A stretch of DNA of 51,031 nt from the sequence record MN158209.1. One strand, written 5' to 3'. This stretch comes from Escherichia phage BEK7. The notes below the pieces were generated by a model. It searched no databases. It saw only the letters and a list, made by a program, of their open reading frames with translations, and was not told the origin of the DNA. Shown in pieces: positions 6,344 through 45,221 of the stretch (the stretch's first letter is position 1; each line of letters opens with the position of its first letter). The translations under genes and the position numbers were made by a program.

Positions 6344-6362
6344 GTTTAACAAAAAATGCTAT
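6344..6362 (-). promoter_or_regulatory. conserved element, atypical reversed copy inside structural operon
   Basis: Reverse complement GTTTAACAAAAAATGCTAT on + strand between capsid paralog B and major capsid gene; oriented against local transcription; lacks the usual 22-nt spacing to a -10. Confidence 0.3.
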
Positions 6363-6408
6363 CATTGTGGCGTTACATACTAACGACCTTTATATATGGA
6401 GGAAGAAA

Positions 6409-16700: not shown

Positions 16701-16745
16701 GCCCGTATAATTCAACAAATCAAATAGCACAAAAGGTGAAAAATA

Positions 16746-27337: not shown

Positions 27338-28270
27338 TTAGAGAAGAAATTCAGGTTTATAAACCTTCCTCTCTATCCCTTGCCTGTAATTATCATTAAT
27401 CGGCATCATAATTTCAAGTCCTCTTTCCTCTGCAGCAATGATCGCGTCACGATCTGTGCTCTTGCAGACAACTCGCATTCTTCTGTTGCCTTTATACCTG
27501 TAAGCTACAATCTCAATGTTAGTTGCATCAAAGCAGGCCCAAACCTCCTGACCAGTTGCAAGGTGAATATGTTGCGCATCAATCCAGTCAACGCAAAGAT
27601 AGATAGTCTTATCTGTACTTCCGGTTCTAACAATCGACCCTCTCGTGTAGTCCTTTGCTAGAAAAGACTGATTACCTTCTTCATCAATGAAAAGCACATT
27701 GCACATTTCATCATCAATTTCATCTGAATGTACCAGGTAACATGGTAACGCGTGAATGTATCGACCATCTTTAACGCCGCATTCATAATAACCATCTTCA
27801 GAAGGATATATCCCTTCATAGGTGCTTAACGGCGTGCGATCAAGTTTTAGTGTTTTTGACATAACGCGCTCGCAGCATTCATGGCTTGCCTGTTTCCCAA
27901 ACGAATAACCAGAATCACGAGATACTCGCTTATTTGCCTTGATTCTATAGTCCTGCGGAACTTTTCCAAGAAAGCGACCCAAAATATTGATCACTTCGCT
28001 GTAAGGTTCTCCGGTTAGCTTCATGATCCAACCAATTCCAGTATCGTTCCCGCACACGTTGCAGATAGCGCCTCCGTCGCCTTTTTTATCTCCAAGTTTA
28101 TCAGTCCATCTAAAGCGATCCTTTCCGCCGCAGTGGGGGCAAGATTGATGCTTGCCGTTAAAAACTTCATTTGGAAGACCGCAAATACTTTGTAGCGCCT
28201 CACGCCATAATCCCTGCATATATGGGAGAATATCTTCCTTTTGATAAACCATAAAGTTTTCGTTGTTCAT
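27338..28270 (-). CDS. DNA primase (zinc-ribbon type)
   Basis: ATG after GAGGTG; zinc-binding CPHCGGKDRFRW...CNVCG motif typical of primase zinc ribbons. Confidence 0.65.
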   Translation of the reverse strand: MNNENFMVYQKEDILPYMQGLWREALQSICGLPNEVFNGKHQSCPHCGGKDRFRWTDKLGDKKGDGGAICNVCGNDTGIGWIMKLTGEPYSEVINILGRFLGKVPQDYRIKANKRVSRDSGYSFGKQASHECCERVMSKTLKLDRTPLSTYEGIYPSEDGYYECGVKDGRYIHALPCYLVHSDEIDDEMCNVLFIDEEGNQSFLAKDYTRGSIVRTGSTDKTIYLCVDWIDAQHIHLATGQEVWACFDATNIEIVAYRYKGNRRMRVVCKSTDRDAIIAAEERGLEIMMPINDNYRQGIERKVYKPEFLL

Positions 28271-28325
28271 ATGCACCTCAAACAAAAAAGCCTGACAGAT
28301 GATAACATCATGCCAGGCATTGTTT

Positions 28326-28799
28326 TTAGCAATTAGTGCTTTCAGGTTTATACAGGAATCCGCCAGGCTCATAATCTGACATTCTTACCACTCGCAACAT
28401 TTCACGCTTATCACATCTCTTTGTGAGCGGTTTGCCATTGGAATCAAATCGCAGGTCTGGACGACAGAATGATGCGCGATAGCCTTGACATCCATATTTT
28501 TTGTAATCGTTATGCACCTTTTGAGCGCCAGCAGCTGAAATCATACCGCGAACACGCCACTGATTTACAGTTTGCTGGCTAACGTTAAGACGTTTTGCCA
28601 TTGCTGATACACTTCCGTAATACTCAATAAGGATGTCAAGTCGCGCTTTTAGTCCGGCGCGCACTTCATCTTTTAAAACATAGTATCCTGTAGGGCGCTT
28701 GCGTTTCTTCTTATCCTTGCCTCGTCTGGTTCCGTTATTGCCATTAATTGTGCGCTTGTCAATCTTGCCAGTTGATACCGCGATTCGCTGTTCTTTCAT
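28326..28799 (-). CDS. HTH DNA-binding protein (putative transcriptional regulator)
   Basis: Lys/Arg-rich N-terminus and helix-turn-helix-like SVSAMAKRLNVSQQTVNQWRVRG; divergent from helicase gene. Confidence 0.5.
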   Translation of the reverse strand: MKEQRIAVSTGKIDKRTINGNNGTRRGKDKKKRKRPTGYYVLKDEVRAGLKARLDILIEYYGSVSAMAKRLNVSQQTVNQWRVRGMISAAGAQKVHNDYKKYGCQGYRASFCRPDLRFDSNGKPLTKRCDKREMLRVVRMSDYEPGGFLYKPESTNC

Positions 28800-28811
28800 T
28801 ATTCATTCTCC

Positions 28812-28831
28812 AATAGCATTTTTTGTTAAAC
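28812..28831 (+). promoter_or_regulatory. conserved 21-nt promoter-like element (copy)
   Basis: AATAGCATTTTTTGTTAAAC; TATTAT 21 nt downstream; about 55-75 nt before helicase start. Confidence 0.5.
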
Positions 28832-28888
28832 GATGATTTAATGATTGTGTATTATACACGCCAAATGGCATTACTCAAAGGTTTTAGA

Positions 28889-30916
28889 ATGATTCCAAAC
28901 ATTGAAAAGCAAATATCAGCACTTGGTGAAGCGGTAATTAAATCCATTCAGGAGCGATTCACTGTTGGCGATATTGTGCCTTACCCTTACCAGTGCGTTG
29001 CATACGCTGAGATCGCAAAGCGTATGAAAAATTATGAGCATCCATTCTTTGTTAAAGCGTCGGTATCGTCTGGCAAAACATTGATGTTTGCAATGGTTGC
29101 TCACCAGTGCCGGAAAATGTGCTTAAAAATGATGGTTCTTGCTCGCCAGGCTGAGATTGTGGATCAAGATTCTGAAGAGATAACAAATCTTGGCGTGCCG
29201 AACTCCATCTATTGTGCAGGACTGAAGACAAAAAGCGCATACTTTCCGATCGTTGTTGGTTCTGAGGGAACTGTAGTTAATGGACTGTTTAAAGCGCTTG
29301 GCGACTATGTTCCGCACGTTATCGGGATTGACGAGTGTCACCAGGTGGATTGGGAAGACCTTGCCGACGCCATAGAGAAAGACGAGTCATTTTTACAAAT
29401 GACGACAAAGAAAGGCGAAAAAGTACAAAATCCAGATTATGACGTAGCGAGCGATAACGAATGCGAAGAATTCCTGATTGGTGAGGATGGCTTGCCAATG
29501 GAGGGAACAGGCCGCACACAATACACTGTCATTATCATGGAAATGATGCGACGTTGCAGGAAAGCATATGGTCATGAACTGCGCATCTTTGGTATGACTG
29601 GATCGGAGTTTCGCGGCGTAGTTCCAATACTGGTAGAAGATAAAAAACAAAAAGGATTCTGGCGCGAACAGGTTACTAATATTGATACCAACTACCTTAT
29701 CAAGTTTGGCTCGGTTGTGCCTACCAATTTTGGCGACGTTGGCGATCTAGGTTATGACCTTTCAGAGTTTGAGGCATCCAGTGAGGACGGCGTTGAAGAC
29801 TTTGACCAGAAAACTCTGCGCAAGATGGAGGAGAAGATCCATAATGATGCAACCATGACGCAAAAAATCATGTCACGCGTGCATGAGATCTGCAAAGACC
29901 GCAACGGCGTGCTGGTAACTTGCGCAGGTGAGCGTCACTGTAAAGAGGCCGCTGCCGCACTTCCGACAGGCACGACATACAGAATCATCACTGGCAAGAC
30001 GGGAGAGAAACAGCGTAAGGAGTGGTTAAGGGAAGCATTCGAGGGAAAGGTAAAATACATTTTCCAGGTTCAGGCGCTAACAACTGGCGTTAACCAGCCG
30101 TTATGGGATACTTCCGTCATTCTGCGTAAAATCAGATCACTAACGTTGCTGATTCAGCTTTTAGGGCGCGGTATGCGACTGCTTAAGAAATGGCATATTG
30201 AGCAAGGATTCACGAAAAACGATCACCTTGTTCTTGATTTCGCCGGAACGATGGACGAGCTAGGGGATTTATATTTCGATCCTATACTTGAGCAAGCGCA
30301 ATTCCAGAAGCGATTCACCAACGGGAAAGATCCGAAAACTTGCCCGATATGCAAGACGCTGAATAGCTACTACGCGCGCCGTTGTATGCACGTAGACGAA
30401 AGCGGAAAACGGTGTGAGCACTTCTGGACGTATCGCGAATGCACAGACCAGGTAGATCCGAGAACGAAAAAGATTATTCATCGCGGTTGCGGAACAAAAA
30501 ACGACGTAGTGGCGAGAGTATGCCGTTGTTGCGATATTTCTCTTGTCGATCCTAACGAGAAGTTAAGCGGCAAGCACTACACGAAAAACGATTACATGAG
30601 TGTTAAATCGTTCCGTGTTGACATGACAAAAAACCAGAAAGGTATCGTTTTTTGCTATGAGCTTGATTATCATGGGGAAACATTCAAGGCATACGAAAGA
30701 TTTTTCCCTGAGTCAGAAAGCAACATTTGCCGGACGATATGGAGAAAAATAGCATTGCAGCACATACCGGATCGCAAGATTGCTGGTATGGTGGCGAGCT
30801 ATAGAAATGCGCGTAAAATTATGGCATACGCCCATCACATCATGCCGCCAGTACGCGTGACGCATCGCAAGACGGCGAAAGGAGAGGACAACATTGCTAA
30901 ACGGGAGTTTGCTTAA
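28889..30916 (+). CDS. SF2 DNA helicase (DExH box)
   Basis: Walker A VSSGKT, DECH box (IGIDECHQV), C-terminal Cys-rich zinc-finger-like region; start could also be 28868. Confidence 0.75.
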   Translation: MIPNIEKQISALGEAVIKSIQERFTVGDIVPYPYQCVAYAEIAKRMKNYEHPFFVKASVSSGKTLMFAMVAHQCRKMCLKMMVLARQAEIVDQDSEEITNLGVPNSIYCAGLKTKSAYFPIVVGSEGTVVNGLFKALGDYVPHVIGIDECHQVDWEDLADAIEKDESFLQMTTKKGEKVQNPDYDVASDNECEEFLIGEDGLPMEGTGRTQYTVIIMEMMRRCRKAYGHELRIFGMTGSEFRGVVPILVEDKKQKGFWREQVTNIDTNYLIKFGSVVPTNFGDVGDLGYDLSEFEASSEDGVEDFDQKTLRKMEEKIHNDATMTQKIMSRVHEICKDRNGVLVTCAGERHCKEAAAALPTGTTYRIITGKTGEKQRKEWLREAFEGKVKYIFQVQALTTGVNQPLWDTSVILRKIRSLTLLIQLLGRGMRLLKKWHIEQGFTKNDHLVLDFAGTMDELGDLYFDPILEQAQFQKRFTNGKDPKTCPICKTLNSYYARRCMHVDESGKRCEHFWTYRECTDQVDPRTKKIIHRGCGTKNDVVARVCRCCDISLVDPNEKLSGKHYTKNDYMSVKSFRVDMTKNQKGIVFCYELDYHGETFKAYERFFPESESNICRTIWRKIALQHIPDRKIAGMVASYRNARKIMAYAHHIMPPVRVTHRKTAKGEDNIAKREFA

Positions 30917-31799: not shown

Positions 31800-31815
31800 C
31801 ACTTTTTGTTAAAAC
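31795..31815 (+). promoter_or_regulatory. conserved 21-nt promoter-like element (copy)
   Basis: AATAGCACTTTTTGTTAAAAC; TAG at 31797-31799 is the stop of the VRR-NUC ORF; CATAAT 22 nt downstream. Confidence 0.5.
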
Positions 31816-31873
31816 AGGCGCGAAGGATTTCGCCATAATAACAACAGTTCAACAAGCAACAGGTAATTAAGAA

Positions 31874-32856: not shown

Positions 32857-32912
32857 GCCCGGCCTTGTGTCGGGCATAATTATTTCAACGAAACAAACAT
32901 GAGGAAATAAAA

Positions 32913-33426: not shown

Positions 33427-34545
33427 ATGAGTCAAAGCAAGATAACCGACGAGCAATTCACGCATGAGCGATTAAAGGGTAAGAGCTATCGACAGATTGC
33501 TGAGGAATACGGCCTGAATGTTCGCAGCGTCGAGCGCCGAGCGGCACGACTGGCAAAGCAGGGAAAAATAACCACTGTAGGAACGCCTGGTTTTGGTGTT
33601 CACGGCGAATCGGTCATGACCGACAAAGAAGGTAACGTGATCCTCAAATGGACAAAGACCAGTAAGGACAAAGAGCAACTGGAAGCGTTGATGCGCGCAG
33701 CTATGGACGCTTTTACCGAAGAATTACCTCGTGTAGATCCGACACCAGAAGAAACAATAAAATACAGAGAAAGCCTTGCCCTTTACCCCGTTTTTGATAT
33801 GCACCTGGGAGCTATGGCGCACAAGCACGAATGCGGCGAGAATTGGGATACATCAACGGCAGAGAAGGTAATGAATGACTTTTTCGATTATGCTGTGGCC
33901 TGCGCCCCGTTCAGCGAGAAAGCAGTGCTGCTGATTGGCGGCGACATGCTTCACAGTGACGGCCTGGAAGCGGTAACTCCTGCAAGCGGTCACGTATTGG
34001 ATCAAGATAGCCGATACGCAAAATTAGTTTACGTTGCAATTCGTGCCGTCCGTCGAGCCATTGAGTTGATGCTCAAAAAACACAAAGAAGTCGAGATCCA
34101 GATAATTGAGGGCAACCATGACCAAAGCGGCATGATCTGGTTACGTGCAGCTATGGCGGCGGCATATGAAAAAGAGCCTCGCGTTTACGTTGATGTATCG
34201 CCGCGAGTGGTTCACCATACGCAGTACGGAAAAACATTCCTTGCATATCATCACGGTCACACCGTCCGAAAGCCGGAAACATTGCTAATGATGTGCGCAG
34301 CAGACTGGCGGGAGGACTTTGGAAACTCAAAAACTATGTATGCGCACGTAGGGCATTTTCATCATCAGACTGTAACAGAAACATCGCTAGGCATTGTTGA
34401 AGTACATAGCACGATGGCAGCTAAAGACGCATACGCCGCGCGAGGCGGTTGGCGTTCCCGTCGCCGTGCTGCGGTTATCATTTACGACAAAGAACACGGC
34501 GAAATCGGACGCTTTATGTTTTATCCTGAAATGGCAGATAAATAA
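33427..34545 (+). CDS. calcineurin-like metallophosphoesterase with N-terminal HTH domain
   Basis: Phosphoesterase motifs DMH, GGDMLHSDG, EGNHD and His-rich HVGHFHH; N-terminal HTH-like YRQIAEEYGLNVRSVERR. Confidence 0.6.
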   Translation: MSQSKITDEQFTHERLKGKSYRQIAEEYGLNVRSVERRAARLAKQGKITTVGTPGFGVHGESVMTDKEGNVILKWTKTSKDKEQLEALMRAAMDAFTEELPRVDPTPEETIKYRESLALYPVFDMHLGAMAHKHECGENWDTSTAEKVMNDFFDYAVACAPFSEKAVLLIGGDMLHSDGLEAVTPASGHVLDQDSRYAKLVYVAIRAVRRAIELMLKKHKEVEIQIIEGNHDQSGMIWLRAAMAAAYEKEPRVYVDVSPRVVHHTQYGKTFLAYHHGHTVRKPETLLMMCAADWREDFGNSKTMYAHVGHFHHQTVTETSLGIVEVHSTMAAKDAYAARGGWRSRRRAAVIIYDKEHGEIGRFMFYPEMADK

Positions 34546-42685: not shown

Positions 42686-42949
42686 TGCCGACTGGTTATT
42701 ATTCCATCTATTCCATTAATCAGGAATAACAGGAATAACTCATTCGCGATCACCTGGATTGTGAGACTTTGAGTTTGATCAATTTTAATCAGTTGATTAA
42801 CTTTTTGTGCGGAGGGGATAGAGAAACACGGTCCTCTCGCATCCTTTCCGGCAATCCTGGCGAGCAATTCTGTTTCTTTCGTTCCCGTTGTTATGCCAAA
42901 TAGCCCTCCGCAACTGGCGATAACAGAAATCGCGTTGACATAACAAAAA

Positions 42950-43145
42950 AAACAAATATAAATATATATATATACCCATAAAATCAATAAGTTAGTTATA
43001 TATATAATTATAACTGTTATCTGTTGTTATCCTTGTTTCATGGGTATATTGGTAGGTGGTATTGTTTTTGTGAATATGTATGTGTGATTGTATGTTTTTT
43101 AATCAATGGTGATATGTGGTGATTTTGTATGTATATATGTATGGG
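42950..43145. repeat. AT-rich divergent control region, copy B
   Basis: Shares ATAAAATCAATA, TGTTATCTGT, GGTGATTTT, GTATGTATAT blocks with 21661-21850. Confidence 0.6.
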
Positions 43146-43276
43146 GGAGTGGCAATCCTCCGTCAACCAGCTAAACAAGCCAATATTTTCAAGTTAAAAC
43201 AATGACTTAAGCTGTGTCATTTGTTATCAGGCAACAGCATTTTGATAAAAAATGCAGCCAAAACAGAGAAAACATA

Positions 43277-43305
43277 TTGACACCACCAGGCTGCATGGTC
43301 ATAAT
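43277..43305 (+). promoter_or_regulatory. sigma70-like promoter (TTGACA-17-CATAAT)
   Basis: -35 TTGACA 43277-43282, 17-nt spacer, -10 CATAAT 43300-43305, about 40 nt before ATG 43345. Confidence 0.6.
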
Positions 43306-43344
43306 GCGCCACATCTAAACGCAACCAATACGGGAGAAAATTCA

Positions 43345-45148: not shown

Positions 45149-45169
45149 AATAGCACGAATTGTTAAAAC
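45149..45169 (+). promoter_or_regulatory. conserved element, GAA-variant copy
   Basis: AATAGCACGAATTGTTAAAAC followed by hairpin GGGCCA-TGTATAA-TGGCCC with TATAAT in the loop. Confidence 0.5.
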
Positions 45170-45221
45170 TCAAATGTGGGGCCATGTATAATGGCCCTAC
45201 TTTCAACGAAGGAGACAAAAG

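Follow-up and report, generated by a model that had tools for sequence, protein, structure and literature searches.

The T1-like siphoviruses carry a short repeat that has already been published and whose function was left open. In the 2024 reannotation of phage TLS it is a 21-nucleotide (nt) direct repeat, aaATAGCACnnnTTGnTAAAA, present in 21 copies that are co-oriented with transcription and precede start codons by about 76 nt, and the same repeat was reported in T1, Rtp and Rogue1 (PMC11447400). The authors were undecided between stoperators, enhancer sites and UP elements, and found only three canonical sigma-70 promoters in TLS; MarA, SoxS, Rob and the marbox receive no mention in their paper (PMC11447400). 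Here we analyse this repeat in a stretch of 51,031 nt from Escherichia phage BEK7 (MN158209.1; hereafter the window), with emphasis on the copy located in the spacer between two divergent genes, which code for a helix-turn-helix (HTH) protein and a DNA helicase.

The second system with which this locus can be compared is that of host class II promoters, where the activator boxes lie in forward orientation around -41 to -41.5 (PMC8811837; PMC9638938). The sequence of these boxes has been given as a marbox 15-mer, 5'-gcannwwntgnnaaa-3' (PMC12052159), as CACT-7X-AAA for the micF box (PMC8811837), and as an A site GCAC plus a B site CAAA for the soxbox (PMC9638938). Class II promoters of Salmonella are described as being without a -35 hexamer, and have a mean of 1.9 matches at that position. 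What is new here is the matching of the phage repeat to the marbox, together with class II geometry. From the sequences, their arrangement and conservation, and the consensus match, we infer that the element is probably, although with real room for doubt, a marbox that recruits host MarA, SoxS or Rob to a class II helicase promoter overlapping the promoter of the HTH gene.

The repeat and its match to the marbox

The preliminary description of this locus held that the HTH gene (minus strand) and the helicase gene (plus strand) diverge from a region of roughly 90 nt containing a copy of a 21-nt element, and on both points it was right. The spacer (28800-28888) measures 89 nt and holds the copy AATAGCATTTTTTGTTAAAC at 28812-28831 (+), one of 11 in the window with at most three mismatches, against 0.01 expected; a looser pattern and a weight matrix give about 19-20 copies. 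A start codon on the same strand lies 52-79 nt 3' of the element in 16 of the 20 scored window copies. As the 21-nt repeat of the Drexlerviridae, the spacer copy reads CAATAGCATTTTTTGTTAAAC at 28811-28831 (+), 78 nt before the helicase ATG. The suggestion that the element overlaps the complement of the ribosome-binding site of the HTH gene has to be corrected, as the GGAGA motif only abuts it, with an overlap of 1 nt if the published 21-mer is used.

The locus can be matched to its counterpart in TLS, for which Table S1 of the reannotation lists P57 (the sigma-70 promoter of gp57), DR11, DR10 (at the 3' end of gp57) and T57 (PMC11447400). The HTH promoter corresponds to P57, the spacer copy is orthologous to DR11, and the copy on the primase side and the terminator correspond to DR10 and T57, respectively. 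The TLS direct repeats DR1-DR18 are the same element as that studied here, and the TLS paper drew no link between the repeat and a -10 hexamer at fixed distance, the marbox or gp57 (PMC11447400).

Positions 28816-28830 of the window, GCATTTTTTGTTAAA, match the marbox 15-mer exactly. This 15-mer was not derived from phage data, and has 16 exact matches in the window, against 1.74 +/- 1.32 in shuffled sequences, 15 of which are copies of the element; T1 has 20, TLS 19 and phage lambda one. The definitions verified in papers are this 15-mer and the descriptions of the A and B sites. A longer consensus of 20 base pairs (bp), reportedly given by Martin et al. in 1999, is AYnGCACnnWnnRYYAAAYn. The spacer copy departs from it at one position (GCAT for GCAC), and sites with at most one mismatch number 18 in Escherichia phage BEK1-23, 21 in T1 and 21 in TLS, compared to about one in mononucleotide shuffles and none in phage lambda. 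In an incomplete literature search, no paper among the matches listed tied the marbox to T1-like phages.

The element is identical in T1, TLS, Vc1, HCF1 and BEK1-23. In the lineages with the most divergent HTH proteins (46-51% identity), GCAC..TG..YTAAAC is retained and positions 1-3 drift in a manner that the marbox consensus permits. Positions G6, C7, A8 and G15 are at least 90% conserved, the most conserved positions being those of the marbox A and B sites, and the centre of the element is always an A/T tract (CGAAT is possible there). Such slow change would fit a pleiotropic host factor that itself changes slowly. In a scan of viral contigs, all multi-copy matches fell on T1-like contigs of about 50 kb, while isolated ones elsewhere look like chance; this distribution does not discriminate between the hypotheses considered below.

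The element is also linked in position to the genes lying upstream, since the stop codon of the upstream open reading frame (ORF) is often the TAG, or the preceding TAA, within the AAATAG or TAATAG with which the element starts (copies 2085, 31794, 38619, 39764, 44099, 46415, 47718 and others).

Geometry of the element promoters

Across 80 aligned copies from BEK1-23, T1, TLS, Vc1 and HCF1, a TAnnnT hexamer lies 18-20 nt past the 21-mer in 67, and at exactly 19 nt in 52. Measured from the box itself, the family-wide distance to the -10 is 18 bp in 45 of 70 consensus matches and 17 bp in another 10, with GCAC distal in all. The same alignment of 80 copies shows a conserved G at -14, a less conserved T at -15, and a CA at the expected transcription start; the predicted start of the helicase transcript was placed on this conserved CA, about 6-7 nt past the -10. 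In the spacer, the copy stands 17 bp from TATTAT and its centre would fall at about -40, the position of a class II box. Its orientation is likewise that of class II, with the A site distal and the B site proximal to the helicase gene, as in micF, and all copies with class II spacing point toward the downstream gene. No usable -35 is present at the helicase promoter, where the canonical position is occupied by TAAACG (three of six matches); over 56 phage element promoters the mean number of matches to TTGACA is 1.89. Two other candidates for a -35 were rejected: TTGnTA, because the resulting spacer of 22 bp would be too long, and TTAAAA, with an implausible 19-bp spacer.

The closest host parallel is E. 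coli micF, which in NC_000913.3 reads ACAGCACTGAATGTCAAAAC, followed by 18 bp, TAGAAT, and the RNA start 7 nt further. The phage promoters share with it the bipartite arrangement (GCAC, 7 bp, YAAA), the placement of GCAC distal and AAA proximal to the -10, a centre near -41 and the lack of a usable -35; the 18-bp spacing of micF is that of most phage copies, whereas the spacer copy has 17 bp. Unlike host class II promoters, however, the boxes studied here are carried by a virulent phage, in about 20 near-consensus copies per 51 kb that are much closer to the consensus than typical host sites. They are fused to an upstream stop codon and terminator hairpins, and in the HTH/helicase spacer a divergent sigma-70 promoter uses the same -10 region.

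The same promoters could be read without any activator. Host RNA polymerase would then engage an extended -10 and a UP-like A/T region, and the 21-mer would be kept as a cassette boundary and stop-codon block. The TG of an extended -10 (at -15/-14) is in fact present in 24 of the 56 element promoters, the element centre is always A/T-rich, upstream ORFs end in its first nucleotides, the module itself contains GC-rich hairpins or terminators, and UP elements were among the functions proposed by the TLS authors (PMC11447400). A precedent would be the PeSLs of T4-type phages, which are composite promoter-terminator cassettes at small early ORFs (PMC2839356, PMC4122927). Like the modules described here, PeSLs are repeated intergenic units of about 80 nt that border small early ORFs, combine a promoter with a stem-loop or terminator, and are plausible points of modular exchange. 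Their sequence is unrelated, however, and their promoters are described as early (PMC2839356, PMC4122927), whereas the upstream half of the modules studied here matches a marbox. UP elements, moreover, need no invariant G or C, whereas G6, C7, A8 and G15 are strongly conserved; nor does the element correspond to an A/T-rich stretch from -59 to -38 without specific G/C, as it reaches -32. Its fixed distance of 17-18 bp and fixed orientation relative to the -10 argue for a protein touching the polymerase, and over half of the promoters have no TG, with a mean of 1.9 of six matches at the -35. A role as cassette boundary is compatible with marbox function rather than an alternative to it. Overall, we regard an activator-free promoter class as unlikely.

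A function of the element in RNA, as a 5-bp hairpin (UAGCA/UGYUA) for antitermination, similar to lambda boxB, or for RNA processing, appears to us vanishingly improbable. Copies of the T type can pair by G-U wobble on the transcribed strand only, and GC hairpins follow the element. Nevertheless, compensatory change is seen in none of the five pairs, the hairpin is simply lost in variant copies, shuffled sequences pair at least as well, a search of the window against Rfam gives no match, and the distance of the element is fixed to the -10 and not to the hairpins; the absence of compensatory changes and of an Rfam match led us to reject such a site.

Several other features accompany the element promoters. 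In most of them, GC-rich inverted repeats of differing sequence either fall in the interval from marbox to -10 or surround the -10 (for example 31815-31833, 32857-32875, 45168-45192 and 28284-28318), and some are complete terminators of the upstream gene, forming compact terminator-within-promoter modules. An A/C-rich leader, CAtCgAAACGAAA, follows the predicted transcription start. Two conserved copies are arranged differently. One, at 6344-6364 (-), is a marbox-type element in reverse orientation to the plus-strand major capsid gene (ATG 6409), in whose upstream spacer it lies; it is kept in T1 (15068-), TLS (DR7) and Vc1 (5712-) but lacks a -10 at a distance of 17-18 bp, and might act as an antisense promoter, as a decoy or as a roadblock. 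The other, an A-type copy, AAATAGCACAAAAGGTGAAAA, at 16722-16742 (+), is kept in T1 (25019) and TLS (24906), ends 3 nt before the ATG of the gene for the large tail-tip protein and includes its ribosome-binding site; so placed, it cannot serve that gene as a class II promoter. Finally, some 600 bp of non-coding, very AT-rich DNA with runs of (TA)n separate the two divergent arms of small genes (42700-43340), a candidate origin or packaging region; the stretch ends in the genome's best canonical sigma-70 promoter (43277-43305, TTGACA-17-CATAAT), the equivalent of TLS P01.

Predicted overlapping promoters and the HTH protein

The promoter of the HTH gene is of a different kind. In a promoter scan it scored 10 of 12 matches, and it is among only four or five canonical intergenic promoters of the genome. 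Its -10 and that of the helicase promoter overlap, offset by 1 nt, and, counted along the HTH transcription unit, the marbox spans about +13 to +33, so that occupancy of either promoter should exclude the other. We compared 74 distinct spacer variants from 84 loci, in which the HTH proteins range from 49 to 100% identity: the exact 15-mer marbox followed by a -10 at 17-18 bp is present in 73 of the 74, a sigma-70 promoter on the HTH strand with at least 9 of 12 matches also in 73, and the 1-nt offset of the two -10 hexamers in 67. Such conservation of the layout speaks for selection on mutual exclusion between the promoters. It was previously suggested that expression of the HTH protein is coupled to the promoter class that it might control; the physical coupling stands, via the common -10 region and a layout found in 67-73 of the 74 variants, but control by the HTH protein is not supported. 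In Citrobacter phage HCF1, about 100 bp of the HTH/helicase spacer (33948-34246), the -10 region among them, occur as a direct duplication; since several other genes of this record are broken, the assembly may be at fault.

A likeness to lambda PR/PRM is evident, in that a gene for a Cro-fold protein is read from a short divergent control region with competing promoters and, as with cI at OR2 for PRM, a good -35 gives way to an activator site near -42. Unlike lambda, however, the spacer has no tandem palindromic operators, its promoters overlap at their -10 hexamers, its site matches that of a host monomeric activator rather than one for the Cro-like protein, and the phage is virulent.

In the mechanism that we propose, the HTH gene would be read from an ordinary sigma-70 promoter (TTGAGT-16-TATAAT) that needs no helper, and the helicase gene from a class II activator-dependent promoter, with TATTAT as its -10 and the element near -40 in place of a -35. 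The element would act as an asymmetric bipartite marbox/soxbox/robbox (GCAC, 7 bp, YAAA) for one molecule of an AraC-family activator, the candidates being host MarA, SoxS or Rob, as well as RamA in Klebsiella and Salmonella. By contacting the C-terminal domain of the alpha subunit and region 4 of sigma, MarA, SoxS or Rob would recruit RNA polymerase, and the complex formed on the helicase promoter would shut the HTH promoter, and vice versa. The same module (marbox, 17-18 bp, -10, a leader of about 30 nt, ATG) would drive some 16-20 other non-structural transcription units, including that of the primase.

The most natural competitor for the element is the neighbouring HTH protein itself. A Cro/YdaS-type HTH lies at amino acids (aa) 55-89, with Pfam scores just under the cutoffs for YdaS_toxin (29.8 bits, cutoff 30) and P22_Cro (25.2, cutoff 30.2), and the protein has a match in PHROG 2856 ('transcriptional regulator'). 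Among PDB sequences, a profile search retrieves Xfaso1 Cro (E 9e-4), and an AlphaFold2 (AF2) model, which has a predicted local distance difference test (pLDDT) score above 90 for aa 40-145 and a basic N-terminal arm of low confidence, has Xfaso1, N15 and P22 Cro as its best structural neighbours. Both fold and signature are therefore Cro-like.

A dimer of this protein might bind the imperfect dyad TAGCA-N5-TG(C/T)TA, activate the helicase and some 20 other promoters from -42, and repress its own promoter. It is the only recognisable transcription factor-like protein of the phage; its canonical sigma-70 promoter (a kind otherwise found at only 3-4 units) and its insulation by a terminator are as expected of an immediate-early regulator; the 15 bp at the core of the element form an imperfect palindrome around an A/T-rich centre, as in Cro and cI operators; and its near-invariant N-terminal arm could read DNA. 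However, the residues expected to read DNA are neither conserved nor co-varying with the site. Of all structured segments, the recognition helix (aa 75-84) varies most across 23 diverse homologues (entropy 2.06 bits), whereas the N-terminal arm (0.57 bits) and the C-terminal segment (0.83 bits) are near-invariant, and phages with an identical element carry recognition helices as different as QQTVNQW, NQTVQGW, LKTVWGW and VRLTNAY. As the element is invariant across the family, no co-variation can exist, and the helix varies freely; co-variation thus gives no support to the HTH protein as binder.

The form of the site points the same way. Its strong orientation dependence and asymmetric flanks are left unexplained by a symmetric dimer, and an asymmetric, orientation-dependent element suits a monomeric activator with two HTH motifs, such as reads boxes of this type, and not a symmetric dimer of a single-HTH, Cro-like protein. 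We also discarded the symmetric operator TAGCA-N5-TGCTA, bound by a class II dimer like CRP or cI, as the main explanation, as flanks and orientation are asymmetric and the marbox fits every conserved position, the top ones coinciding with its A and B sites. No 12-mer of 28832-28888 recurs elsewhere in the genome beyond chance, and no second operator was seen in the spacer. Binding of the HTH protein to the element hence appears unlikely, and the whole scheme of an HTH dimer as activator and autorepressor quite unlikely; the earlier idea that this protein autoregulates or controls the element class is not borne out, given the varying recognition helix, the constant element, and the match of the latter to a host box in sequence and class II geometry. 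The two near-invariant segments of the protein, an N-terminal arm (aa 14-34, DKRxxNGNNGTRRGxDKKxRK) and a C-terminal motif (aa 106-123, GYRASFCRPDLxFDxNGK), have no known counterpart in Cro proteins, and the arm might bind DNA or a protein partner.

Another phage protein could take the place of the HTH protein, either with a marbox-like specificity of its own or by modifying or releasing a host activator. Virulent phages often carry their own activators of middle genes, such as MotA of T4 and Mor/C of Mu, and most of the small early proteins of this phage have no assignable function. The T4 MotA/AsiA and Mu Mor/C systems are indeed similar in that -10-only promoters with a conserved upstream box define a temporal class of genes, but the MotA box lies at -30 and the box here at -40, and Mor/C sites are dyads, whereas the phage element is asymmetric, matches the site of a host factor and has no evident phage activator. 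A Pfam scan of the small non-structural proteins, with the structural-region proteins outside its scope, detected no AraC/XylS-type or other DNA-binding or transcription factor domain (it was run on concatenated proteins, and its 'Serglycin' matches are artefacts of the GS linkers). Since the match to a host box in sequence and geometry is more simply explained by host proteins, we consider a phage effector of this kind very unlikely.

Host-dependent activation through a marbox remains our preferred reading, and a number of points weigh against it. The marbox consensus is degenerate, and the spacer copy reads GCAT in place of GCAC at the A site and stands at 17 instead of 18 bp from its -10. 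Class II geometry does not apply to the conserved copies 6344- and 16722+, and an extended -10, as present in 24 of the 56 promoters, can do without an activator. Unstressed cells contain little MarA and SoxS, and most Rob is sequestered in aggregates until induction; for a virulent phage, reliance on these proteins would be a risky design. Some relatives are labelled as infecting Vibrio, Pseudomonas or Campylobacter, although these labels look doubtful. No binding or expression data for this phage family were found in the literature searched, and no transcriptome or start-site map of a T1-like phage in what was an incomplete search.

The HTH gene in its locus and implications for T1-like phages

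Annotation was taken from the circularly permuted record of Escherichia phage BEK1-23 (MN158211.1; window position = record position - 8116), a T1-like virulent siphovirus of the Drexlerviridae, Tempevirinae, Hanrivervirus. This coliphage shares 90-93% identity with about 19 GenBank records under the name 'Campylobacter phage A1xx', a doubtful host label; the labels of 'Vibrio phage Vc1' and 'Pseudomonas phage Motto', which belong to the same family and carry the same element, are doubtful as well.

Table 1. Features of the HTH/helicase locus, in window coordinates.
Feature	Position	Strand	Details
DNA primase gene	27338..28270	-	annotation; ATG 28270; spacing fits second marbox promoter
HTH-transcript terminator hairpin	28284..28318	-	GCCTGGCATGATG-TTAT-CATCTGTCAGGC plus T6; orthologue of TLS T57
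Second marbox-type site, AAAGCACTAATTGCTAAAAA	28323..28342	-	primase-promoter upstream element; 15-mer exact, 20-bp consensus with 2 mismatches; orthologue of TLS DR10
HTH gene	28326..28799	-	157-aa Cro-like HTH protein QGH77151.1; orthologue of T1 gp23 and TLS gp57
HTH Shine-Dalgarno GGAGA	28807..28811	-	direct sequence reading; 7 nt before ATG
Marbox-type site, ATAGCATTTTTTGTTAAACG	28813..28832	+	20 bp; A site GCAT, B site TAAA; forward; centre at about -40 of helicase promoter
Helicase promoter -10 TATTAT	28850..28855	+	17 bp past marbox; predicted start about 28862-28863
HTH-gene sigma-70 promoter	28851..28878	-	-35 TTGAGT (28878-28873), 16-bp spacer, -10 TATAAT (28856-28851); predicted start about 28844-28846
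Helicase Shine-Dalgarno AAAGG	28877..28881	+	direct sequence reading
DNA helicase gene QGH77152.1	28889..30916	+	ATG 28889 per MN158211.1 annotation

On the other side of the HTH gene, the second copy of the element is weaker and overlaps the HTH stop codon (28326-28328). A -10, TATCAT (28304-28299), stands 18 bp past this second marbox, within the loop and descending arm of the terminator hairpin of the HTH transcript. With a second marbox at its stop codon, a -10 embedded in its terminator and then the ATG of the primase, the HTH gene is predicted to form a monocistronic, activator-independent unit with marbox-driven replication genes on both sides.

The match to the marbox would offer a concrete function for a repeat that was unexplained by the TLS reannotation, and would explain the scarcity of ordinary promoters in T1-like genomes. 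One would naturally assign the element to the phage 'transcriptional regulator' encoded beside it, a view that this match corrects. More tentatively, it is possible, although we would not favour it at present, that T1-like phages have placed the bulk of their non-structural genes, through about 20 promoters with near-consensus class II marboxes, under the host Mar/Sox/Rob(/Ram) stress regulon, with their development tuned by the stress and antibiotic-resistance state of the host; replicated boxes would titrate the activators and relieve occlusion of the HTH promoter, making the spacer a sensor or timer of activator availability. If so, thousands of high-affinity boxes on replicating genomes would titrate host activators, and phage replication may in this way blunt the host stress response. 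The gene expression of a very common phage family, with laboratory contaminants among its members as well as the Webervirus and Tunavirus phages that are applied against Klebsiella and E. coli, would then depend on regulators that clinical multidrug-resistant strains over-express, with a bearing on phage-antibiotic interactions and on the choice of therapeutic phages.

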